64,000 nt of DNA from a phage. Made by a program: the position numbers and the translations under genes. Position 1 is the stretch's first letter. Each line of letters starts with the position of its first letter. A model generated the notes under the pieces. The model ran no database searches and was not told the origin of the DNA. It saw only the letters and a program-made list of their open reading frames with translations. Positions 10,143 to 53,241 of the stretch are shown in pieces. Where the stretch lies: the sequence record PZ534511.1; one strand, written 5' to 3'.

Positions 10143-12215
10143 TTATGAGAAGTCTGGAGGGACAACATCTTCTACATACCCTTTCAGAGCAACCTGCCCC
10201 ATATGAAGCACGGTAGAATCTCTGGCTGTAACAGTGATGCTGTCAGACATTACTTGCGGGTATGCCCACACATACTGTTTTACCTCAGGGTATCTATACT
10301 CTATGGTTGCCATGTTTCCGCAGATACATCTCCATAAAAATTCTTGGTAATTCCTGGTTGGGTCGTAGCCATATACCGGAGCAAGCTCTTTACTAGGAAC
10401 GAACCCTGCAAGGTATTGTATTTCAGACGGTTGCCAACCTAACTTAACGATAGGTATGTTTACAGACTCTTTTGCCTTTTCAATACCTCCCTGCATCACC
10501 CAATCGTAGCACTCGGTGCAGAAGAAATCAAGAGCACCTGCTTCTTTTTTATATTGGTCAGCAAGGTTCAGCTTTTGCGTAAGCTCTGTTTCCATAATGG
10601 TTGGGAAAAACAGCAGAGCTGTCATCTGAGCTGATGCAGCGTGTGCCTTTATTGCCTTTGAAATGGCCGCAATACGAGCGCCAAGCTTACCACGACAAAA
10701 TGCTACATACTTGTCGTAAACACCGCCAGTTTTAGGATCGTCAATAGTCCCAATATCTAATGCATACTCACCTGTCTCATCATAAAACGCCTGCTTTGTA
10801 GGGTAATCATAAATACAAGGTCTACGAGTATCGGTATTGTACCACCACCACGGTTCACCAACCTGCATAATCACTGGCAGGTTGTTTCTCATAGCGGCTG
10901 ATGCAAAATTCTTAAATACTGCAGTAAGGAAATTCATACCCTCTTCAATGGTTGGAGACAGGAGGTAGCTACAGGGTGTATACCCTGTTTTAGCGTAGTT
11001 ATCGTTCCAGTCTCTTTGGGTCCATTCCAACGGGCAGGCATCGCTGAAAAGCTCAAAACTTACAGATTGCATAACGTCGAAGTTATGTCGTTTGGCATTG
11101 TACATAAAATCATCATGCCATTTATAAGCTGCAGCGTTTAGCGCCCCTGTTCTGTTTATAGACCATTGGGTTCCTGACCATGTGTAGTCATAATAATGAC
11201 TCATACCAACATAATGGTTTATGGTTCCGGTATAGCCCAGACGCTTGATATTGTTCAACACCCTTAAAGGAGATACGTTCCACATATCGTCATATGCGGT
11301 GCAGATCCCAACGTCGTGCTCTTTAACCTGAATATTGTTAAGTTGCATCATTTTCCAGCCTGTGTCTGGCTGGAGCAGATCTAGGCGCAACTCACACTCT
11401 ACATTTTCCGTTCTCGGGTCTGTGCTATTACTTACCCAGTCTTTAGGCATAAGCGGTATTAAAATCCTTCTCACCTGTCGAGGATCAACACCCATCATGT
11501 TGTTGTTCTGATCCATCCCGACGCAGTCCTCGAAATCAATATGAATCTCTGCAACATTCTTATCCTCTGAGATGCTGACAGCATATTGAGCTAAAGGAAC
11601 ATAGATGATTGTGCCATCAACAAGGTCTACAGTCATAATCATCTTTTCAGGGGTGGAGAAGTTGCTGGCATTGGTTATTGACATTCTGAACCAAAGCTTG
11701 GTGTTTCTCATCTCATAGTGATCATCAAACCCAATACCGAAATGGTCATACTTGTCAACTGTTTCCCAAATGCACCCAGCCATACCTCCATATGTTCTTG
11801 ACACTAAACGGTTAATACAACAGTTGTTATCTGCAACAATACAGGTACTTTCAGTCTGCTGAGTAGTTGTAACCCAATACCTTGGGTGAAACATTCTCTC
11901 CTCAACAGTATCCCAAGATATCCTGTCAAGATTCTCATCTGAAACTATTGTACATTTCGCCCTTTGTGTTCCAATCATCACCCCTTGAGATTTTGATGAA
12001 AACTCCATAAAGAAGCTTCTTGGCAACCTGTTGGGTAATTTGTCAACAATTTCCACTGGGATCTCAATACTGGTTGCCCCAATTGGGATAGTTACATCAC
12101 CCTCAACATGATTATAATCCCTACCAGGAACGGCAGTATCCTGAACTGTGCGGTAATGAAACCGTGCAGCCATTGTAGAGTAATCACGGTAAGGTTTAAA
12201 AATAGCTGTTGCCAT
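10143..12215 (-). CDS. tail/baseplate structural protein (690 aa)
   Basis: ORF track; position between baseplate and fiber genes; Trp/Tyr-rich, no enzymatic motif recognised. Confidence 0.35.
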   Translation of the reverse strand: MATAIFKPYRDYSTMAARFHYRTVQDTAVPGRDYNHVEGDVTIPIGATSIEIPVEIVDKLPNRLPRSFFMEFSSKSQGVMIGTQRAKCTIVSDENLDRISWDTVEERMFHPRYWVTTTQQTESTCIVADNNCCINRLVSRTYGGMAGCIWETVDKYDHFGIGFDDHYEMRNTKLWFRMSITNASNFSTPEKMIMTVDLVDGTIIYVPLAQYAVSISEDKNVAEIHIDFEDCVGMDQNNNMMGVDPRQVRRILIPLMPKDWVSNSTDPRTENVECELRLDLLQPDTGWKMMQLNNIQVKEHDVGICTAYDDMWNVSPLRVLNNIKRLGYTGTINHYVGMSHYYDYTWSGTQWSINRTGALNAAAYKWHDDFMYNAKRHNFDVMQSVSFELFSDACPLEWTQRDWNDNYAKTGYTPCSYLLSPTIEEGMNFLTAVFKNFASAAMRNNLPVIMQVGEPWWWYNTDTRRPCIYDYPTKQAFYDETGEYALDIGTIDDPKTGGVYDKYVAFCRGKLGARIAAISKAIKAHAASAQMTALLFFPTIMETELTQKLNLADQYKKEAGALDFFCTECYDWVMQGGIEKAKESVNIPIVKLGWQPSEIQYLAGFVPSKELAPVYGYDPTRNYQEFLWRCICGNMATIEYRYPEVKQYVWAYPQVMSDSITVTARDSTVLHMGQVALKGYVEDVVPPDFS

Positions 12216-12901
12216 TAACCCTCCTGTCTAGTTGCGTTTACTGTAATACTTTCACAATAAATGGTTGTGGTGTCCCAATCAGGTCTTACGTCAGGAACAT
12301 ACAGCAAAGTAGCCAGCCCACCAACTCCGAATTGGTTTTCTTCCCACACTGATCCGAAGCCAAGAGCTGTAGAGTCCCCTTCAAAACCAAAAGCTTGCCC
12401 TTGCGATTCTGTAAGACGCAAATGACAAGGTAATGGTAGCATATCTAAGATCTGATCGATAGACTGCAATATGTCAAAGCAAGTTTTTCTAATATTTATG
12501 TCAAACCTGAAGTTGTCTCCTTTCCACGTATCGAAATTGTCTCTTCCGAACAATTGTCGCAAGGTGGAGATGACATCTTCGCGAGTCCCGCCCCTTGATG
12601 CTGCGGCCTGCTGAATAATTAGTGTGGCACGAAAATCAGCATCTGAAAGTCCATTCCTAAGAATACCAAGTTGATTACCAACTTCGTCAAGGTATCTTCC
12701 GCTGGCATTGTTAAGCAATCTTCCTTCAGCCAAACCTACCAGCATCTTATCAACATCCTCCAACCTTTTAAGGTATACGGTTAAGAATGTGACTAAATTA
12801 ACCTTCTCAGCCAGAAAATCTCCAGGCAGGTAGTCAAGACCTCCCTGAACAAAATCTGGCAGAGTGTGGATGTGGTTAACATCCGACTTAATCTCTGCCA
12901 T
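12215..12901 (-). CDS. tail/baseplate protein (228 aa)
   Basis: ORF track; stop/start overlap with flanking structural genes. Confidence 0.35.
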   Translation of the reverse strand: MAEIKSDVNHIHTLPDFVQGGLDYLPGDFLAEKVNLVTFLTVYLKRLEDVDKMLVGLAEGRLLNNASGRYLDEVGNQLGILRNGLSDADFRATLIIQQAAASRGGTREDVISTLRQLFGRDNFDTWKGDNFRFDINIRKTCFDILQSIDQILDMLPLPCHLRLTESQGQAFGFEGDSTALGFGSVWEENQFGVGGLATLLYVPDVRPDWDTTTIYCESITVNATRQEG

Positions 12902-29931: not shown

Positions 29932-30843
29932 TTATTTCCCGTTAACTTTGTTGTAGTTCCCCTGCTCAGATGGGACTATGGTAGAAGGTCTTCCATATTC
30001 CTGATAATACCAATCCGCAGCCGATTGGGTAACACCGTTTTCATCTGTCCACATCATGGATTTGTATGGCTGCCACTCCTCTGCAGCATTTGTGGATGCA
30101 GTGTCTGCGAATGCTCCTGTGTCCCTCTTGTTACCTACGTTACTACCATTCTTACAGTCGTTGACAGCACCTTTTTGTTGGGTCTTGCCTACTTTCTTAG
30201 GATTGCTGTATACAGTTGCATTAACAACCTTGTTCAAGTAGAATGTGCGGAACTCTGTAAGTTCTACATCAAAAACCATTGCAGCACCTTCACCAACAGA
30301 CTTGCTGGCAGAAAGGCTGGTTATAATGTAGTTCTCAAGGAGTCTTTCCTCGGTAACCAAAGAAACCAATTGGCGCTTATTAATGATCTCAGTCAAAGCC
30401 TCCAGTGCAGCGCCCGGTCGCATAGATGCTGCAGGGTTTTTAGAGTCAGTATTCCTGTCAATGTAGTTTTGCTCATAGATTATATGTGGTGATGTATTTA
30501 CCCTACCAGTAAAAGAAAATACACCATCTTTAATTACAGCGTGGTCTGACAGGGTAGACTTATCTTCCACTGCAAAACTAGTTTTATCAACAGAATGTTT
30601 GAAAGAATAGTTCTCAACCTGGTCGAAGATAATGGCAAGATCGTTAGTAAAGTTTTTACCCTTCATCTCCGTATTGCGACCACCATAGTTAAGACCGCTG
30701 ACAAACATAGTGTACTTTACATCGCTTTCAGTTTGCTGCTCTGCCTTTTCAGCCTTTGGAGATTTAACCTCTTGAGGCTTGTACAGGTCTTTTTCATCAA
30801 CTATATTGCTTGGCATAACCTCTCCAGGACACTCCGATACCAT
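29932..30843 (-). CDS. tail protein downstream of tape measure (303 aa)
   Basis: ORF track; first gene after tape measure in operon. Confidence 0.3.
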   Translation of the reverse strand: MVSECPGEVMPSNIVDEKDLYKPQEVKSPKAEKAEQQTESDVKYTMFVSGLNYGGRNTEMKGKNFTNDLAIIFDQVENYSFKHSVDKTSFAVEDKSTLSDHAVIKDGVFSFTGRVNTSPHIIYEQNYIDRNTDSKNPAASMRPGAALEALTEIINKRQLVSLVTEERLLENYIITSLSASKSVGEGAAMVFDVELTEFRTFYLNKVVNATVYSNPKKVGKTQQKGAVNDCKNGSNVGNKRDTGAFADTASTNAAEEWQPYKSMMWTDENGVTQSAADWYYQEYGRPSTIVPSEQGNYNKVNGK

Positions 30844-30922: not shown

Positions 30923-33259
30923 TTACCAAAGGTCGGTAGACATGAAGTTGATATCTTTATTGTTCTCCCACTCAAGTTTTGCATCAAATATTTTGTTAAA
31001 CTCACCCTCATCTATTGAAATCGTGATTTTCCCATCACTGATCTCTAAAGGTAGCATTTCCATAGTTCTTAATTGAGAAGCAAAACCAGGGCCACCCGGC
31101 AACGGAAGAGTCCCGCCCGGTAAGGTGTCCAAAGGATTAACAAACCCGTTACCTCCCGATATGATATCTTTGCGAATCATATCGCTGATAGTATCCAGCT
31201 GCTGATTTCTTTCACTTAGTGGGTTGTAACGGTCATTAAATAATTCCCCGGCGCTTAGTATTGTACCGATAATGCCCAGCTTACCGAGCAGACCAACTTT
31301 GCCACCAGGTGTCTTGAGGCCACCTCCACCTTTTCCTGCCGGAGCTCCACCACCAGATCCTTCTGTAGTAGCGGCACCCGCTGCTCCAGCTGCACCCCTT
31401 AGAGAGTTAAGGAATTTAAAGGTTTTTACAAGCATAGATGCCATGACAAAACCTTTTGTTAGGGCGTTGACGACCAGCATGATGGCAGCAGCAAACCCTG
31501 CCCATTTAGCATAGCTAAAGGTGTCATGAAGCTCTTCAGAATATTCCTTCGTCTTGGCTGTTATGAACCCCCATTTAATCCCCCATTCAAGGAAAAACAT
31601 GCGGATCTTGACTATAGTGTTGTTTAGTTCACCAACTACCCAGTTAAGGCCTCTCACAAACCCGCTAACAAAATCACCAGAGGCATCCCACACAAATTGC
31701 AGAGTCTCACCCGTGCGGATCAGTGTATAATAGAACTCTGTTAGTTCGTCAGACCAACGGGTGAACAGTTTCTGACGAGTCAGTTCGATGAAGGTTTTCA
31801 GTCTGTTTTCTGCCAGCACGTTAGACTTCTGCATTCTTTCATAACCAGCTGCAGATGCCTCGTTCATGTACTTAGCCACATACTTCATGATCTTGGCTGT
31901 TTTAACCTCACCTTTCTTCATCATGTCCATGAACTGATCCATGGAGAGTTCAGAAAGACCAAAAGCCTCTTTGGTGGCCTTGATAAAAGGTTCGTATGCA
32001 CCAGGCAATGCTTCAGCAAGTTGTTGCTTCAGTTCTTCGGACATTACTTGCCCTTTACCGAGCATTTGCTGGATTGCCATAATACCGCGCTGGTATTTTA
32101 CCTCATCGGCACCATAAGCAGCAGCATACTGGGAGTATGCAGAAAACAGCTCATGCACTTCCTGATTTGTCATCTGGTTTTTGGCGTTTACCGACATCTG
32201 GGCGTAACCTTGAAGACCAGATTTGAGATCAAAACCAAGACGCATAGCCTCTTGCTGGACAAACGCAACCTCACTGTTAGCTTTGTTTGGATCTCCAGTA
32301 ACAGCAGTAAGAGCAGCACTTGCCCCCTCCATCATGTGACCGGATCTATTAACTGCAGCAAATCCAGAAAAAGCTGTATACGCAGCTGTTGCATTAATAA
32401 CAGATCTACGTAAGTCTCTCATGGCATCGCCTAGTGTAAGCGTTTGGCTGGTGGCGCTTTTAAACCCAGACTGCAGCGCTGACAGGTGGGCGTTAAAGGT
32501 TGACTTCTTCATCTCCCCGCGAGCAAACCTGGACTCTAACTCTGAGTATCCTGGCAAGCTTCCACGGAATCCGGCCCCATACTTGGCAGAAAGTCTTATC
32601 GCGGAGTTGTAGAGGTGGGTTCTCCTTGCCTCACGATCCGACATAAGCCTATTATCCATACCAGCTTTACTGTCTCTTCTTAGCTGTCTATGATAACGAT
32701 TCATGGCAGCGGTCTGGGCTTTCACAAGATTAGGATCTGAAGCCACTCCACCCATGTTCGGGTTGCCTGGAATATATCTGAAAGACTTGGCGTTAGCAAG
32801 AACTCTTGCCTTAGGTGCCTTATAACCCCCATAGGATACTGGTGCAGATTTGGCAGCTTTTTTAGCCTCTTTAGCTTGCTGCTGGTAGAACTTACGCATC
32901 CTAGCCATCTCTGGGTTTTTGGCGGTAAGATTGCCTACAGCTTGCCTACGTCTTGCATTCTCCCTACGCTCTATTGCAGCCTTTACTGCAGCCTCTTTCT
33001 TAGCCTGAGCAACGCTCTCCCTGTGCAGTTTAGCATTTGCTTGAGATTGTTGTCTGGCAACACGTTGCATTGTCTGCTGAGTTTTAACCGCCACTGCCTG
33101 CCATCTACTCATGGGGTTGGCTGAGTTAAAATCCTCGCCCAGTTTCCTGAACTCCCTCCCAATACTGCGAATTTTCTCTACAGCTTTTTTGTAGGAGGAG
33201 TTCTCTATCTCAAAGCCAATCTTGTTGACTGTTGTGGCAACTATTTTGTTTGTAGCCAT
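30923..33259 (-). CDS. tail tape measure protein (778 aa)
   Basis: Long, largely alpha-helical composition with Gly-rich tract GAAGAAGAATTEGSGGGAPAGKGGGGLKTPGG; located after tail chaperone genes. Confidence 0.6.
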   Translation of the reverse strand: MATNKIVATTVNKIGFEIENSSYKKAVEKIRSIGREFRKLGEDFNSANPMSRWQAVAVKTQQTMQRVARQQSQANAKLHRESVAQAKKEAAVKAAIERRENARRRQAVGNLTAKNPEMARMRKFYQQQAKEAKKAAKSAPVSYGGYKAPKARVLANAKSFRYIPGNPNMGGVASDPNLVKAQTAAMNRYHRQLRRDSKAGMDNRLMSDREARRTHLYNSAIRLSAKYGAGFRGSLPGYSELESRFARGEMKKSTFNAHLSALQSGFKSATSQTLTLGDAMRDLRRSVINATAAYTAFSGFAAVNRSGHMMEGASAALTAVTGDPNKANSEVAFVQQEAMRLGFDLKSGLQGYAQMSVNAKNQMTNQEVHELFSAYSQYAAAYGADEVKYQRGIMAIQQMLGKGQVMSEELKQQLAEALPGAYEPFIKATKEAFGLSELSMDQFMDMMKKGEVKTAKIMKYVAKYMNEASAAGYERMQKSNVLAENRLKTFIELTRQKLFTRWSDELTEFYYTLIRTGETLQFVWDASGDFVSGFVRGLNWVVGELNNTIVKIRMFFLEWGIKWGFITAKTKEYSEELHDTFSYAKWAGFAAAIMLVVNALTKGFVMASMLVKTFKFLNSLRGAAGAAGAATTEGSGGGAPAGKGGGGLKTPGGKVGLLGKLGIIGTILSAGELFNDRYNPLSERNQQLDTISDMIRKDIISGGNGFVNPLDTLPGGTLPLPGGPGFASQLRTMEMLPLEISDGKITISIDEGEFNKIFDAKLEWENNKDINFMSTDLW

Positions 33260-37134: not shown

Positions 37135-37605
37135 TTACTGTCCGATTTTAAAGGTTGCAGATTCAAGCAGCACATCGTAATGCCGCATAGCCTCGTTGAA
37201 GCCCTTTTCTTGTGCCCACTGCTCACTAACAGTAGGATTACTAAACTGCCCAGCCTCAATAACAAACTGGATAGCTTTGGCCCCTGTGTCCCCCATCTGC
37301 TTAAGAATAGCCTCTGCACTTGATCCTCTAGCCATAGCTCTCAACAATTTTTCTGTCAAGGTCTGTAGTTGAGTACTATGAAATGCAAAGGCTGTCTCCA
37401 TGAAATTGCGAACAGGCAGCCCGTTCCAACCGAAGTTGTGAATGGCTGCCAATGTTGCCATATTTAAGCCTGACGGGTGAGGTTCGTCATAAAAGCCGTA
37501 GGTTATTGTTTTACTTTCAAGTCTCACAAGTTCTTTGTAGAAGCGATCTAAACGCTTTAGGTTGAACCTTGTTTGACATTTAACCTTTAGCATTATATCC
37601 CTCAC
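37135..37605 (-). CDS. head-tail connector/completion protein (156 aa)
   Basis: ORF track; operon position. Confidence 0.3.
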   Translation of the reverse strand: MRDIMLKVKCQTRFNLKRLDRFYKELVRLESKTITYGFYDEPHPSGLNMATLAAIHNFGWNGLPVRNFMETAFAFHSTQLQTLTEKLLRAMARGSSAEAILKQMGDTGAKAIQFVIEAGQFSNPTVSEQWAQEKGFNEAMRHYDVLLESATFKIGQ

Positions 37606-48337: not shown

Positions 48338-48414
48338 TGGTCTCCACGGAGTGATTCGAACACTCGACCTCCTGATCCCAAATCAGGCGCTCTACCAAGC
48401 TGAGCTACGCGGAG
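48338..48414 (-). tRNA. tRNA-Pro (anticodon UGG)
   Basis: Manual fold: acceptor CUCCGCG/CGUGGAG, D-arm GCUC/GAGC, anticodon loop UUUGGGA, T-loop UUCGAAU, CCA encoded. Confidence 0.8.
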
Positions 48415-48425
48415 TATTTATTATT

Positions 48426-48500
48426 TGGTGGCCCTGGGTGGAATTGAACCACCGTCTGGCGATTATGAGTCGCTTGCTTGAACCTTCCAGCTACAGGGCC
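48426..48500 (-). tRNA. tRNA-Met or tRNA-Ile2 (anticodon CAU)
   Basis: Acceptor GGCCCUG/CAGGGCC, anticodon loop CUCAUAA, T-arm GGUGG-UUCAAUU-CCACC, CCA encoded; G1-C72 suggests elongator type. Confidence 0.75.
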
Positions 48501-48501
48501 A

Positions 48502-48577
48502 TGGTGCTGATAGCAGGACTCGAACCTGCAACCTATTGATTACAAATCAATTGCACTACCAATTGTGCTACATCAGC
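48502..48577 (-). tRNA. tRNA-Thr (anticodon UGU)
   Basis: Acceptor GCUGAUG/UAUCAGC, anticodon stem-loop AUUGA-UUUGUAA-UCAAU, T-loop UUCGAGU, CCA encoded. Confidence 0.8.
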
Positions 48578-48582
48578 AAAAA

Positions 48583-48681
48583 GGTGCTAGGTGATGGAAT
48601 CGAACCACCTATGTATTCAACGACTACCTCGTCTATTTTCAGGATTAAAAATCCTCGCCCTTGCCAAAGGGCTTACCTAGC
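48583..48681 (-). tRNA. atypical tRNA-like gene (about 99 nt; identity unresolved, CCA not encoded)
   Basis: Perfect 7-bp acceptor (GCUAGGU/ACCUAGC), D-arm GCCC/GGGC, T-arm GGUGG-UUCGAUU-CCAUC, but about 47 nt between D- and T-arms containing AGGAUU-UUU-AAUCCU hairpin and a second GACGA-GGUAG-UCGUU hairpin. Confidence 0.45.
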
Positions 48682-48779
48682 TCAGTATGTTGACCATGTT
48701 GCTAGTCGGCGATGACGACTGTAACATTTGATAATCCGGTTCTGCTTCCGGCTTTCGCTTAATTACAAGGTCAACAATA

Positions 48780-48870
48780 TGGCTGAGGGTAATGGAATCG
48801 AACCATCATCGAGTCATCCTCAACGGGACGGTTTTCAAGACCGCTTGAGCACCATTGCTCCCTACCCTCA
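48780..48870 (-). tRNA. tRNA-Ser (anticodon UGA), type II
   Basis: Anticodon stem-loop GCGGU-CUUGAAA-ACCGU, long variable arm (UUGAG-GAUGA-CUCGA), T-loop UUCGAUU, discriminator G, CCA encoded. Confidence 0.75.
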
Positions 48871-48984
48871 TTTATAAACAATACTGATAATGACACTGAT
48901 TTTCGAGCAGTTAGTGACTAGTATAAACGACGATAAATATCAATGCCATTATCTGTATGATTTATGCATTTAAAAATGTAAATT

Positions 48985-49071
48985 TGGTGGGGAGTGGTGG
49001 AGTCGAACCACCCGAGTCGCAATGACAATAGATTTACAGTCTACACCGCTACCTCTACGGGATAACTCCCC
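48985..49071 (-). tRNA. tRNA-Tyr (anticodon GUA), type II
   Basis: Acceptor GGGGAGU/ACUCCCC, anticodon loop CUGUAAA, long variable arm, T-loop UUCGACU, CCA encoded. Confidence 0.8.
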
Positions 49072-49075
49072 AATT

Positions 49076-49150
49076 TGGCACCCCGTACTGGACTCGAACC
49101 AGTGTCAACGGCTTAGAAGGCCGCTGCTTTATCCACTAAGCTAACAGGGC
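49076..49150 (-). tRNA. tRNA-Arg (anticodon UCU)
   Basis: Anticodon stem-loop GCGGC-CUUCUAA-GCCGU, T-arm ACUGG-UUCGAGU-CCAGU, acceptor with two G-U pairs, CCA encoded. Confidence 0.7.
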
Positions 49151-49208
49151 ACTGGGTGGCTTTCTTTTACACCTTAGCCGCCAGAAAAGGTGGGAGACCA
49201 TGTTTACA

Positions 49209-49237
49209 ATATTACACTGTTAAGCAAAGTTTGTCAA
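49209..49237 (-). promoter_or_regulatory. sigma70-like promoter driving tRNA cluster
   Basis: On minus strand TTGACA (plus 49232-49237), 17-nt spacer, TAATAT (plus 49209-49214); about 55 nt upstream of tRNA-Arg. Confidence 0.55.
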
Positions 49238-49246
49238 GAAAATATT

Positions 49247-49585
49247 TTAACTATTGCCAACAGGCTGTATTTCTGTGGTAAATGGCATAAAAGGTGCTGG
49301 TTTTTCAGCCTCTTCTACTACCACCTCTTCCTCTTCACCGAACATCTCATCATATTCTTCCTGCATTCGGTCTGCCTTATCAAGAACATACTCTGCAATG
49401 CTTTGACGAATATTTTGTTTGGTTTTCGGGTCCAACATCAGCTCTCTTAAAACTTTGTGAGCTTCTGGAACCATCGCTATAAAAGATTCCTTCATATCAA
49501 GGATGTTCTTCTCTAGCTGAATGGCGTTGGACTCCTCTTTCAGAGGTCTGCCTCTACGGCGACGCTTTTTAGTTGTATCCGCCAT
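49247..49585 (-). CDS. small DNA-binding-type protein with basic N-terminus and acidic C-terminus (terminase small subunit or regulator candidate)
   Basis: Start trimmed to ATG at 49583-49585 (MADTTKKRRRRGRPLKEE) with GGAGGA RBS; acidic tail EEEEVVVEEAE. Confidence 0.35.
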   Translation of the reverse strand: MADTTKKRRRRGRPLKEESNAIQLEKNILDMKESFIAMVPEAHKVLRELMLDPKTKQNIRQSIAEYVLDKADRMQEEYDEMFGEEEEVVVEEAEKPAPFMPFTTEIQPVGNS

Positions 49586-49613
49586 GTTTCCTCCATTATC
49601 ACGTGATAGGTGG

Positions 49614-49642
49614 ATTTTATCATAGCAAATACTGATTGTCAA
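49614..49642 (-). promoter_or_regulatory. sigma70-like promoter for 49247..49585 gene
   Basis: On minus strand TTGACA (plus 49637-49642), 17-nt spacer, TAAAAT (plus 49614-49619). Confidence 0.55.
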
Positions 49643-49929
49643 GTTCGCCGCAGGGTGGTATTCCCTGCGACTTGTCCAGCGTCCTAGACCAGCAAGACCC
49701 AACAAGTGGGTTACCAGAGCCCATTACCGCACTTTGGCTCGACCTTATTACAGGTTGGCTGGGGTCACATCGTCATGTGCTGGCTGCCCCTACCATTTTA
49801 AGTGTGGTGCACTATCAAGCCCTCTAAGGGGAACTCAGTCTTCTCCGAACCCTGTTTCAAAGCATCCGGAGATAAAGCCATCAAATTCATCTTTAAATTG
49901 GATATTCATCATGATACACGAAAACAACC

Positions 49930-50172
49930 TCATTGTAAAGCACAAATAAATAAAACATACTTAATTTGTTTGTTATCAGGCTCAGGGTAGAAGTAGAAGA
50001 TCTTGCTATCACCGATCTGAACACCACCATCCCAACAGCATAGCCCATAACCCGTATTCATACAAGCTAAGTCGTTGGCAAAATCTATTGCATCATCCAG
50101 TGCACGAAATTCACCTTCATCTTCTAAATAATCCTCATTCATGGAACGAAAAACGAGCTTAACCTTAAACAT
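49930..50172 (-). CDS. hypothetical protein (80 aa)
   Basis: ORF track only. Confidence 0.3.
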   Translation of the reverse strand: MFKVKLVFRSMNEDYLEDEGEFRALDDAIDFANDLACMNTGYGLCCWDGGVQIGDSKIFYFYPEPDNKQIKYVLFICALQ

Positions 50173-50248
50173 AGCATTACCTGTAGACCTCGTAAGTTAA
50201 AATTGTATCACATCATATTGCAGATCTTATCAGGTAACATTATTTTTG

Positions 50249-50458
50249 TCAACAGATTCCGGCCTTATCTCGCCTGTCTGCGTATTCTTTAATCGCAACC
50301 TCCTCTGCATTGGTGACTAAATCTTCAAAGTAACTCTCAAGCTCCTCGTCAATGTCAGGAAACCAACTCTTTTTCCTGTCAGTGTGAATCGCAGACTTGT
50401 TGAATTTATTACAGTTCTTTGCTACCGGATTATTCATTAATAGCCCCTCAGCGTTCAT
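50249..50458 (-). CDS. hypothetical protein (69 aa)
   Basis: ORF track only. Confidence 0.3.
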   Translation of the reverse strand: MNAEGLLMNNPVAKNCNKFNKSAIHTDRKKSWFPDIDEELESYFEDLVTNAEEVAIKEYADRRDKAGIC

Positions 50459-51026
50459 AGTAAATCTTATTTAACATTACCTCATCCTTTGCAGAAAGAA
50501 TACCGAGATATGCATCACCGAACCTGCCTGCAACAACCTCTACATGATACATCACTTCGTTAATATCGTCAAGAGTGATAACTGGATGACCGTATCTCTC
50601 TGAGTATTGTCTCAGAGTGCGATGTAGGGAATCATCATCGTAGGCAGACTTTTTAATATCACAAACACGACGAATAGCCTTGATGTCGAAAAACCCTGTG
50701 CGATACCAACCAAGAAAAAGGTTTCGTGCAGTGTCAACACCTACATCAACACCGTCAAGAACCTTATCTACAAGATAGCTGTCATCCTTTGGACCTGCTT
50801 CCTTAGTTCGAATGTAGTTGCCATCTTTTCCAGGTGACAGCTCCTTCTCATCACCAACCTGAATGCCATCATTTGGCGGTGTTAACCACTTATCCGGATG
50901 CTTACGATCACGAGCGTTAGAATGATTACGCTGGAAACCTGGCTTCCACTTGAAAGTTTTCTCCATCTGTTCTTCATTCTGATAACGTTTTGCAATCTTT
51001 TCACGGTCATCTTTGCGTGGACTCAT
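50448..51026 (-). CDS. hypothetical protein (192 aa)
   Basis: ORF track; no recognisable motif. Confidence 0.35.
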   Translation of the reverse strand: MSPRKDDREKIAKRYQNEEQMEKTFKWKPGFQRNHSNARDRKHPDKWLTPPNDGIQVGDEKELSPGKDGNYIRTKEAGPKDDSYLVDKVLDGVDVGVDTARNLFLGWYRTGFFDIKAIRRVCDIKKSAYDDDSLHRTLRQYSERYGHPVITLDDINEVMYHVEVVAGRFGDAYLGILSAKDEVMLNKIYYER

Positions 51027-51530
51027 AGCTGCCTCCTCTTCAAGTTATAGAAAAACTCACTGTATCGCTTTGTAACGAGCTTTTCTATCAAACTGGTGCG
51101 ATTGCCTTACCTGATATAGTTTATATAGCTGTGGAGCGATTTAGGGGCCTTCTTGTCCGTTTCCACACATAAACTTCATCCAAGCTCGCGCGGGAGACTC
51201 TCAACCGACTCCTTCCGGCGCTGGCAAGCTTTCGTCGGTGGTCCACATCAGTGCTCGGCCTTTGGCCTGCGCTATCGCTTCGCTCCCACACATGTTAACA
51301 GACCTGCATGTATGCACTTCTGTTATTGTGTGCACCAGAGAGGCCCGGCATCTCGCCCCTCGTAGGCGAGTGCCAATGAAGGGCCGACACTACCAATAGT
51401 AAGTAATAAATTTAAAACATGGTACTTAGGATCTAATATATTCTACATAAGTTAAGTATATGTACTTAGTACCATAAGTACTAGATCTTTTGTTTTTTAT
51501 TATTTAGTTATTTTAGTTATATTCTTTATG

Positions 51531-51611
51531 TGTCCGTATCACGGACAGTTAGTGTCCGTATTACGGACAGATTTGTCCGCGTGACGGACAGTAGTGTCCG
51601 TATCACGGACA
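51531..51611. repeat. array of four phased 17-bp palindromic sites (TGTCCG-N5-CGGACA), putative operator/iteron array
   Basis: tgtccgtatcacggaca (51531-47), tgtccgtattacggaca (51553-69), tgtccgcgtgacggaca (51574-90), tgtccgtatcacggaca (51595-611); centre spacing 22/21/21 bp; flanked by AT-rich segment. Confidence 0.8.
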
Positions 51612-51686
51612 GTTACTAACCTCTGTTCCAGAGCGAACATAAAACATACGAATCCTTATAGTACAGATATTTAAGTTTTTACTGGT

Positions 51687-52037
51687 CTAACCAGTTGTTG
51701 ACATTCGAATAACTTCTTCTGGTGGCAAAACTTTGGAAAATGTGCATCTTTTACCTCTCCCTTGTGTGGATATTTCAACCACTCCCGCACATTCTAAAGT
51801 TTTAACGCACGCTGCTGCTTTTGTTTTCTTTATTCCAACATCTGCTGCAATTTTCCTTGTGCTGGGTGTGAAGCGTGAACTTCCTCCAAGCTTATACCAG
51901 TTGTGCAGGTAGCAGTATACGATCTTGTCATACAAGTCAAGAACAACAACCTCCCCAGTTGTGTCATTCAAAACTTTTGACATAGACAGTATTTCAAGGG
52001 GGACTTTAAGATATAGCAGCTTATCCCCATCTTTCAT
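51687..52037 (-). CDS. small helix-turn-helix DNA-binding protein (candidate binder of adjacent palindromes)
   Basis: 116 aa; HTH-like segment TRKIAADVGIKKTKAAACVKTLECAGVV; gene ends 76 bp from palindrome array. Confidence 0.4.
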   Translation of the reverse strand: MKDGDKLLYLKVPLEILSMSKVLNDTTGEVVVLDLYDKIVYCYLHNWYKLGGSSRFTPSTRKIAADVGIKKTKAAACVKTLECAGVVEISTQGRGKRCTFSKVLPPEEVIRMSTTG

Positions 52038-52646: not shown

Positions 52647-53184
52647 TCATTTAAGTTTAATGCAGTTTTTAAGCTGGCGTTCCATACGATCCACAACCTT
52701 GTCTGGAACATCATGAATGCTTTTATTGCCGTGGCGGTTTTCAACCACGATCACGGTATAACTATACCCATGACTGATTGCCATGTCAACATATTCCTGC
52801 ACATGTTTTTCTTTTGTAAACGTATTACTTACCACGATACGGTCGTATCCCATACGCATCATATCTTCTACGTTATCTTTCGGTATAACTATACCCATGA
52901 CTGATTGCCATGTCAACATATTCCTGCACATGTTTTTCTTTTGTAAACGTATTACTTACCACGATACGGTCGTATCCCATACGCATCATATCTTCTACGT
53001 TATCTTTGCACCATTTCGCTGCGAGTGTTACTTTACTTGCATCCCAGTTGTAATTGCCGTCATCGTCATACCAGAACATGTCGTTCTCAAAATGTGGATA
53101 CAGACCCTCTAAAGATAGCGCATTTGCCAGTGTTGATTTGCCAGACCCTGGTAGACCACGCACGATATATAGCATTTTAGACAT
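52647..53184 (-). pseudogene. P-loop polynucleotide-kinase-like gene (T4 Pnk kinase-domain-like) disrupted by 127-bp tandem duplication
   Basis: Walker A GLPGSGKST after ATG 53182-53184 (GGAGG RBS); reading frame breaks at duplication junction, producing two overlapping ORFs (52873..53241 and 52647..52931) that both encode KDNVEDMMRMGYDRIVVSNTFTKEKHVQEYVDMAISHGYSYT. Confidence 0.6.
52754..53007. repeat. perfect tandem direct duplication, 2 x 127 bp
   Basis: 52754-52880 is identical to 52881-53007 (cggtataactatacccatgactgattgccatg...tcttctacgttatcttt), checked base by base; unit length not divisible by 3. Confidence 0.9.
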
Positions 53185-53212
53185 AGTGACCCTCCGTTTT
53201 AATTTCAACGAT

Positions 53213-53241
53213 AGTATACCTAACTGTTTTGTTAATTTCAA
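53213..53241 (-). promoter_or_regulatory. sigma70-like promoter for kinase/phosphoesterase genes
   Basis: Minus strand TTGAAA (plus 53236-53241), 17-nt spacer, TATACT (plus 53213-53218). Confidence 0.4.

Follow-up and report, generated by a model that had tools for sequence, protein, structure and literature searches.

We analysed a window of 64,000 nucleotides from a phage (sequence record PZ534511.1; the window is this whole stretch at its full length) and focused on two GC-rich islands, island A at 49647..49904 and island B at 51106..51400, both given on the minus strand. By sequence similarity, the window is from an rV5-like coliphage of the genus Vequintavirus, and the region 49150-51750 was 95-99% identical to 118 Vequintavirus phage records. 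From ~47 to 53.2 kb, every gene was located on the minus strand. Island A was flanked by open reading frame (ORF) 49930-50172 on one side and by ORF112 (49247-49585; phrog_3330, function unknown) on the other. A strong sigma-70-like promoter was located directly 3' of island A, before ORF112 (49642..49614, minus strand; TTGACA, 17-nt spacer, TAAAAT). It matched 11 of 12 positions, was conserved in relatives, and would serve ORF112 and the cluster of seven tRNA genes that ARAGORN identified at 48338-49150(-). Another sigma-70-like promoter was found by the promoter scan at 50252..50224 on the minus strand. Island B was flanked by ORF192 (50448-51026) and by an AT-rich stretch at 51401-51527. 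Beyond this stretch were four palindromes at 51530-51615 and then the gene of a 116-amino-acid (aa) winged-helix (wHTH) protein at 51687-52037 on the minus strand. The strong promoters and the palindrome array that an earlier note on this DNA had placed beside the islands were found there by promoter and repeat scans. No terminator was predicted on the minus strand among the neighbouring genes.

The composition of the window was examined in 200-nt windows, in which GC content had a mean of 44.0% and a standard deviation of 3.7%. The maximum over the 64 kb was at 51191-51390 in island B (59.5%, z 4.2), and 49641-49840 in island A ranked fifth (54.5%, z 2.9). This profile confirmed both GC-rich islands of the earlier note, although its interval for island A was slightly off. 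The part at 49881-49930 was AT-rich and contained a promoter, and the GC-rich part was at ~49640-49880. The note had also seen no credible ORF in the islands, and this held. Only short ORFs of 30-70 aa were present and none was conserved as a protein. In alignments of 7-10 relatives, most of them were disrupted by stops or frameshifts.

Island A was present as a whole in 119 Vequintavirus records in a sensitive blastn search. Its candidate transcript would be read from a promoter at 49911..49939 on the minus strand (TTTACA, 17-nt spacer, TATCAT), with a predicted start near 49904. We aligned 7 distinct Vequintavirus variants, including the metagenomic phage L159, which was 91.6% identical. The -35 box of the promoter was invariant in these variants, and the -10 box varied at its fourth base only (TATCAT, TATGAT, TATTAT). 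The region of ~260 nt following the promoter had no conserved ORF and contained ten local helices, consistent with a candidate structured RNA or long leader. Six hairpins, at 49842-49872, 49824-49838, 49801-49813, 49697-49711, 49674-49689 and 49647-49671 on the minus strand, were arranged around a central motif. The 61 pairs in the ten helices were 98.1% paired over the 7 variants, compared to 34-46% in slid controls. Three pairs were changed on both sides and still paired (A-U to U-A, U-A to C-G, and C-G to U-A), a value matched by only 1 of 500 shuffles. In the helices predicted by both strands, each of the three one-sided changes left a G-U pair when read on the minus sense, which would be A-C when read on the plus sense. 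The last hairpin (49647-49671) lay directly against the -35 box of the strong promoter (49642..49614), and no intrinsic terminator was predicted. Because of this arrangement, island A may exist as a free RNA and also serve as a long leader for the operon of ORF112 and the tRNA genes.

The centre of island A was a three-helix motif at 49714..49794 on the minus strand. Helix P1 (GGGG/CCCC) closed the motif, P2 (CACAU/AUGUG) formed a hairpin within it, and P3 was a core of ~40 nt with almost no variation (CCAACCUGUAAUAAGGUCGAGCC..GCGGUAAUGG). In blastn searches, 43 nt of this region (49720-49762) were 93-97% identical to sequences in ~686 T4-like phage records. The sequence comparison indicated that the centre of island A is homologous to an element that precedes vs.8-type genes in T4-like phages. 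In T4 itself (NC_000866), the match was located just downstream of denV. The RefSeq annotation gives vs.8 as 64253-64912 (2254-2913 in our T4 locus L166), a protein of 219 aa with a start right after denV, and therefore the match is counted as coding in T4. We compared 20 distinct copies of the element from IMG/VR. The conserved part of the vs.8-type protein began with MRTFLTG or MKFLTP, ~150 nt or ~40 codons past the annotated start. Before it, the element contained stops and non-triplet indels, occurred in two subtypes and was found beside varied upstream and downstream genes. The later protein start, the stops, the indels, the subtypes and the different upstream genes meant that the element is non-coding. 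Judged from these alignments, the annotated 5' end of T4 vs.8 is a mis-annotated non-coding RNA motif.

The helices of the T4-like element were maintained by different sequences. Type 1 elements formed P1 as GGGAA/UUCCC in T4 and as GGGAG/CUCCC in the contig L122, and type 2 elements formed it as AAAGG/CCUUU, AAAGC/GCUUU or AAAGA/UCUUU. The GGGG/CCCC of the window was GGGG/CUCC in phage AlexBoehm, with one G-U pair. P2 was CCUCAU/AUGAGG in T4 compared to CACAU/AUGUG in the window, and one pair of P3 was seen as U-A, U-G, C-G and A-U across the subtypes. RNAalifold on mixed T4 subtypes recovered only the core, with the flanks misaligned, and its fold for type 2 conflicted with the compensations. 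P1 of type 2 was defined by hand and then tested. In 13 type 2 sequences, the resulting 32-pair structure was 98.6% paired compared to 18-45% in slid controls, and its covariation score was reached by none of 500 shuffles. A covariance model of 88 positions was built from nine type 1 T4-like sequences only. It matched 49714-49794(-) of the window over its full length, positions 1-88, with 53.0 bits (E 1.6e-9). The model also matched the type 2 elements with their compensated P1 and the diverged relative L159 (35.6 bits), and it gave no further match in the window or in the satellite-like replicon described below. As far as we found in Rfam 15 and by a literature search, the T4-like element is undescribed so far. 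The vs.8 protein weakly resembled the ATPase domain of large terminases (phrog_2, 1.3e-5). The T4-like contig L118 had a different downstream gene. A link of island A to the T4 origin oriC was considered and dropped, since a T4 review places oriC near rI.-1 and not at denV/vs.8 (PMC3016281).

Island B was found in all 119 Vequintavirus records with 89-99% identity, and its phage matches by blastn were confined to these. Its multi-hairpin, GC-rich sequence was treated as a candidate structured RNA or origin-associated element. The alifold consensus was -80.9 kcal/mol on the minus sense and -75.2 kcal/mol on the plus sense. The consensus folds of both islands were somewhat better on the minus than on the plus sense. 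We did not choose the strand by fold energy, as minus was only slightly better, which was not decisive for island B. Helix H1 (51342..51385, minus strand) had the form GGCCC..GGCA.CUCGCC-loop-GGCGAG.UGCC.GGGCC and was invariant in the genus. In plasmid NZ_CP020521, it showed two compensated pairs (GGCA/UGCC to GUCA/UGAC and CUCGCC/GGCGAG to CUCUCC/GGAGAG). The most conserved piece of island B was helix H4 (51204..51239, minus strand), a 6-bp stem ACCGAC/GUCGGU with a 24-nt loop GAAAGCUUGCCAGCGCCG(G/U)AAGGA in which one position varied. H4 was 100% paired in 15 distinct sequences. Three of its six pairs were changed on both sides between the phages (ACCGAC/GUCGGU) and small replicons (GCUGCC/GGCAGC), and two phages had a G-U intermediate. 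The stem CCGCGC/GUGUGG (51163..51193, minus strand) needed G-U pairs and formed on the minus sense only. One of its G-U pairs became G-C in phage Aya and the diverged contig L023, and the replicon pE275a kept the same stem as CCCGCGC-UCAU-GUGUGGG. In other satellite variants, the conserved CCCGCGCG closed a different hairpin with different partners. One arm of the longest hairpin was dispensable, because it was absent by a natural 18-nt deletion in Murica and typing phage 5.

Outside the phages, four to five small plasmids of E. coli (13.2-13.7 kb) contained parts of island B, and a 39.6-kb plasmid had three copies. Pattern scans added the diverged phage contig L023, which is the L159 contig, along with two further small replicons (13.9 and 15.5 kb) and three other phage contigs. 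The pattern scans of IMG/VR for distant homologues gave a single diverged phage contig, and the only hits among 185,579 species genomes were chance ones in GC-rich bacteria. The metagenome scan gave 6 true matches, all in rV5-like phages or 13-15-kb replicons. ORF192 and the wHTH gene were found in Vequintavirus only, and therefore a covariation search in other Vequintavirinae was ruled out.

The following results came from database scans of the kind that the earlier note had proposed. No Rfam 15 family was found in either island. Only tRNAs reached the gathering score in the window, and with E up to 10 nothing credible was found at 49150-51750, where the best hit was rli43 with 22.7 bits against a threshold of 100. 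There was also no Rfam 15 match in four T4-like loci or in the satellite-like replicon. In 5,426 E. coli genomes, island A had no match and the matches of island B were confined to four small plasmids, and a host origin of the islands was rejected. The two islands showed no similarity to each other or to other parts of the window, and the T4-based model found no second copy, so paralogy was also rejected. The islands had no tRNA or tmRNA fold, the tRNAs found by ARAGORN being those of the cluster only. They had no tandem direct repeats and so are not ToxI-like.

E. coli replicons of 13-15 kb, namely NZ_CP020521 (L028, 13,689 bp) and also L027, L006, L140 and L145, encoded an HK97-like capsid protein together with Dit-like, tail-completion-like and tape-measure proteins. 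In NZ_CP020521, the capsid protein was a major capsid protein of HK97 type. Its Dit-like, tail-completion-like and tape-measure proteins were 50%, 45% and 25% identical to the products of window genes at 30130-30753, 37165-37587 and 31529-33247, respectively. Terminase, portal and polymerase genes were absent from NZ_CP020521 and from the other replicons. About one fifth of NZ_CP020521 was non-coding, and the replicons were about one tenth of the phage genome in size. These replicons may be satellites of rV5-like phages, because they encode a capsid protein and rV5-like tail proteins; we found no paper on satellites of Vequintavirus. The strongest nucleotide match between NZ_CP020521 and the window was the core of island B. 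In NZ_CP020521, the island B homologue had short perfect hairpins in an array, with UGUGUGUGGG between them. The motif TGTGTGGR occurred 13 times in NZ_CP020521 against 0.8 expected, and 12 times in the phage window against 5.8 expected. Its copies were mostly non-coding and were often arms of inverted repeats or located between hairpins (128-294, 2205-2774, 11038-11245, 12479-12634 and 13627 of L028). DnaA boxes were rejected as an explanation, as the repeated CCCACACA fitted a DnaA box poorly and TGTGTGGR was not clearly enriched in the phage. The replicons encoded an unrelated Rep-like wHTH protein, with no detectable relation between the phage and satellite wHTH proteins. They had iterons of their own (six 19-mers at 23 bp, three 36-mers) and kept the core of island B ~300 bp from them in the same relative order.

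On the other side of island B, the AT-rich spacer (51401..51527) was 127 bp long with ~31-39% GC and separated the island from the palindromes. These were four dyad-symmetric 17-bp repeats TGTCCGTATCACGGACA at 51530..51615, with 21-22 bp spacing in helical phase, and the wHTH protein encoded next to them may use them as iterons or operators. This protein matched phrog_12838, 'replication initiation protein', with 8.5e-80 and is annotated in relatives as 'replication initiation protein' or 'transcriptional regulator'. Its HTH_36 and DUF6945 scores were below the Pfam cut-off. Repeats, an AT-rich region and an initiator-like protein with a PHROG match were thus present around island B. Hairpins were present on both strands of island B. 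The island had no sequence similarity to known single-strand initiation (ssi) sites or to RNA I/II. ColE1 RNA I gave no match at E up to 10, and no plus-strand promoter was found in island B.

Based on the above results, both islands are conserved and non-coding, with helices maintained by compensatory change. We consider it probable that both form conserved, folded elements of non-coding RNA that are transcribed from the minus strand along with the early genes around them. The suggestion of structured non-coding RNAs in the earlier note was thus borne out on the structure side, and the folding with covariation that it had proposed gave compensatory changes in both islands. From the sequence we infer that the islands are transcribed, that island B acts as RNA and not as DNA, and what functions they may have. 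The description of the islands in the earlier note as rich in stems held only in part. The comparison with relatives supported it, but the single sequence did so weakly, with fold z-scores on the minus strand of -1.4 for A and -2.4 for B, and on the plus strand of -0.8 for A and -2.2 for B.

Several observations weigh against this reading. The single-sequence folds were only mildly better than shuffled sequence. Divergence within the genus was low (mean column identity 92-93%), with few independent substitutions per helix. In the core of island A, the inner GUA/UGC helix was lost in 4 of the 7 Vequintavirus variants. No vs.8 homologue was found in the window by tblastn of T4 vs.8, and the motif of island A had no vs.8-type gene after it. 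Its role may therefore differ from that in T4-like phages. For island B, the informative one-sided changes favoured the minus sense by only 2 to 1, and one hairpin (GGCC..GUGGACC) paired better on the plus strand. The satellite hairpins were perfect Watson-Crick palindromes and could form just as well in DNA, and the compensations between phage and satellite may derive from one divergence event. In addition, the promoter scan found no promoter directly upstream of island B.

Three other explanations were weighed against the RNA elements. Island B could be part of a lytic replication origin instead of a free-standing regulatory RNA, in which case the dyads would be iterons for an O-like wHTH protein and the AT-rich stretch would melt. 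The GC-rich hairpins would then be a DNA signal for ssi or primosome loading (G4-type, RSF1010 ssi) or a template for a stable R-loop or primer transcript (ColE1 RNA II, T4 oriF/oriG), and the satellites would carry the same element for replication by the replisome of the helper. Four dyads at 21-22 bp, the 127-bp AT-rich stretch, a GC-rich structured block and a small wHTH gene resemble the lambda origin and iteron plasmids, as generally known. The match of the neighbouring gene to PHROG families of replication initiation proteins, the strand-neutral palindromes of the satellites, which are compatible with DNA, and a GC-skew minimum with a strand switch at ~53.1-53.3 kb, 2 kb away, point in the same direction. 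An origin-linked role is a serious rival for island B, because replicons with unrelated Rep proteins and iterons still keep its core near them in the same order. There is also a precedent in T4, whose origins use R-loops formed from promoter transcripts (PMC3016281). However, the CCGCGC/GUGUGG stem and the intermediates of H4 need G-U pairs, which favours RNA on one strand. The island resembled no known ssi site or RNA I/II, and in Murica and typing phage 5 the longest hairpin had lost an arm by deletion. A repressor role is just as conceivable for the wHTH protein, with the four 17-bp dyads as its operators. On balance, the origin is a possible but rather unlikely account of island B.

The islands might also be mobile linker DNA like the PeSL cassettes, kept for recombinational shuffling of cassettes, or plain horizontally acquired remnants, with a functionless fold. 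The core of island A was 93-97% identical across unrelated phage groups whose flanks shared nothing, the T4-like element occurred beside varied genes in a hyperplastic region, and the neighbouring genes of the islands were confined to this genus. The promoter of island A was also close to the T4/PST PeSL consensus TTTACW-N17-TAYWAT (PMC4122927). Nevertheless, compensatory changes kept P1, P3, H1, H4 and three hairpins of island A paired, which is not required of recombination sites. The elements were 80-300 nt long with many helices, whereas a PeSL is a single stem-loop with a promoter, and the islands diverged no faster than the adjacent coding DNA (4-11% compared to 1-15% mismatch per 60 nt). 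We regard this explanation as very improbable. The remnants of foreign DNA considered in the earlier note hold insofar as the centre of island A occurs in T4-like phages and small E. coli replicons share the core of island B, but these are apparently conserved functional modules and not decaying remnants. Coding of small proteins was the least credible explanation and is highly improbable. Hypothetical proteins are annotated there in some records, such as AlexBoehm (coding sequences of 56 aa and 31 aa in island B and 36 aa in island A). Two ORFs were open throughout the genus, 51121-51291(-) in 9 Vequintavirus variants with indels in multiples of three, and 49798-49890(-) in 7 variants. However, nearly all substitutions in both frames were non-synonymous. 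The 56-aa frame began with GTG, had no ribosome-binding site and was interrupted by a stop in the divergent L023, and the 30-aa frame lost its ATG in Aya. All other frames were broken, and most depositors annotate nothing there.

Returning to the structured RNA elements, island A would be a multi-hairpin RNA of ~260 nt starting at the T4-early-like promoter TTTACA-N17-TATCAT and running to the strong promoter of the operon of ORF112 and the tRNA genes. Its centre would be a member of an RNA motif family that is also the leader of vs.8-type gene cassettes in T4-like phages. The covarying stems around an almost invariant 40-nt core suggested a binding site for a protein or a small ligand. Because these stems frame the core as in a binding pocket, island A would most likely act by sensing or regulation in cis, or by processing into a stable RNA. 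Island B would be a second multi-hairpin RNA between the iteron/AT-rich module and ORF192. From its distribution, island B is specific to rV5-like phages and their presumed satellites, with weaker strand evidence than for island A. Its core is common to the satellite-like 13-15-kb replicons, and this suggested that island B is a handle for phage-specific machinery of regulation or replication.

A bolder proposal, which we hold only tentatively and consider doubtful, concerns both islands. The core of island B would be the cis handle by which unreported plasmid-borne satellites of 13-15 kb, with their own capsid and rV5-type Dit, tape-measure and tail-completion genes, exploit rV5-like helpers for replication, packaging or regulation. 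The centre of island A would be a new ligand- or protein-sensing, riboswitch-like class of RNA in the ~686 T4-like records, including T4. To our knowledge, large virulent phages have hardly been surveyed for structured RNAs. The predicted motif in the centre of island A has been hidden in the gene annotation of T4, and its function would thus be directly testable in the best-studied phage. Through island B, rV5-like phages are linked to small replicons of E. coli resembling satellites of a virulent myovirus, and the shared non-coding core is an obvious place to study the interaction of phage and satellite. Since rV5-like phages serve biocontrol and therapy, cis elements of their early region or replication, and their parasites, are of practical interest.

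Some further observations were made around the islands and in the records used. Genes for polynucleotide kinase, phosphoesterase and RNA ligase were located at 52-54 kb. The polynucleotide kinase gene contained a perfect 127-bp tandem duplication at 52754-53007, which was missing in seven relatives. Because 127 is not a multiple of three, the gene was split into ORFs 52647-52931 and 52873-53241. The duplication is either a recent mutation or an assembly artefact. In the tRNA cluster, ARAGORN assigned a four-base anticodon to a 99-nt tRNA-like gene at 48583-48681(-), which reached only 35.5 bits with the Rfam tRNA model. Its counterpart in relatives is annotated as a 97-nt tRNA-Lys(UUU), and the gene may hold an intron or a long insertion. 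The diverged metagenomic relative L159 had an insertion of ~830 bp at 2121-2952 between the homologues of ORF69 and ORF192 (50437 / 50429 of the window). Among the 118 Vequintavirus records, 18 (MG0656xx) are named 'Campylobacter phage' with C. jejuni as the host. They were 97% identical to rV5-like coliphages in this region, which suggested mislabelled or contaminated entries.

The islands were compared with known systems. The T4 species 1 and 2 RNAs, rnaC and rnaD, are stable small RNAs beside tRNA genes. The rV5-like phage PhiTE has a pseudo-ToxI RNA (PMC3475682). Like the islands, these RNAs are non-coding, have an unknown or anti-defence function and are located in accessory or tRNA regions of large lytic phages. 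However, they have no sequence relation to the islands, which lack ToxI-like tandem repeats and a tRNA-like fold. Island B is like the lambda origin, the R1 G-site, RSF1010 ssiA/ssiB and ColE1 RNA II, as generally known, in its four dyads, its AT-rich stretch and the adjoining initiator-like wHTH gene, and in its position near iterons in the satellites. It differs from these systems in having no sequence or Rfam similarity to RNA I/II or ssi sites and in its length of ~300 nt, which greatly exceeds that of ssi signals. The PeSL cassettes of T4-type phages (PMC2839356, PMC4122927) are also short conserved non-coding modules in plastic regions with varied neighbours and a similar early promoter of TTTACW type. 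In contrast, a PeSL has one terminator-like stem-loop followed by the promoter, and the islands comprise 3 to 10 helices, with covarying stems and a core that is invariant. In island A, the promoter precedes the multi-helix region of 260 nt, and TATCAT misses the W position. The T4-like element upstream of vs.8 differs from the motif of the window in extending a further 60 nt (AUGGA and then the GCCANGGAAYGGC hairpin), usually with a gene for a P-loop TerL-like protein at once after it. The window motif is without vs.8 and is embedded in a longer RNA with other 3' hairpins. The two share the P1/P2/P3 layout, the core of ~40 nt with 93-97% identity, and the gene-sense strand.

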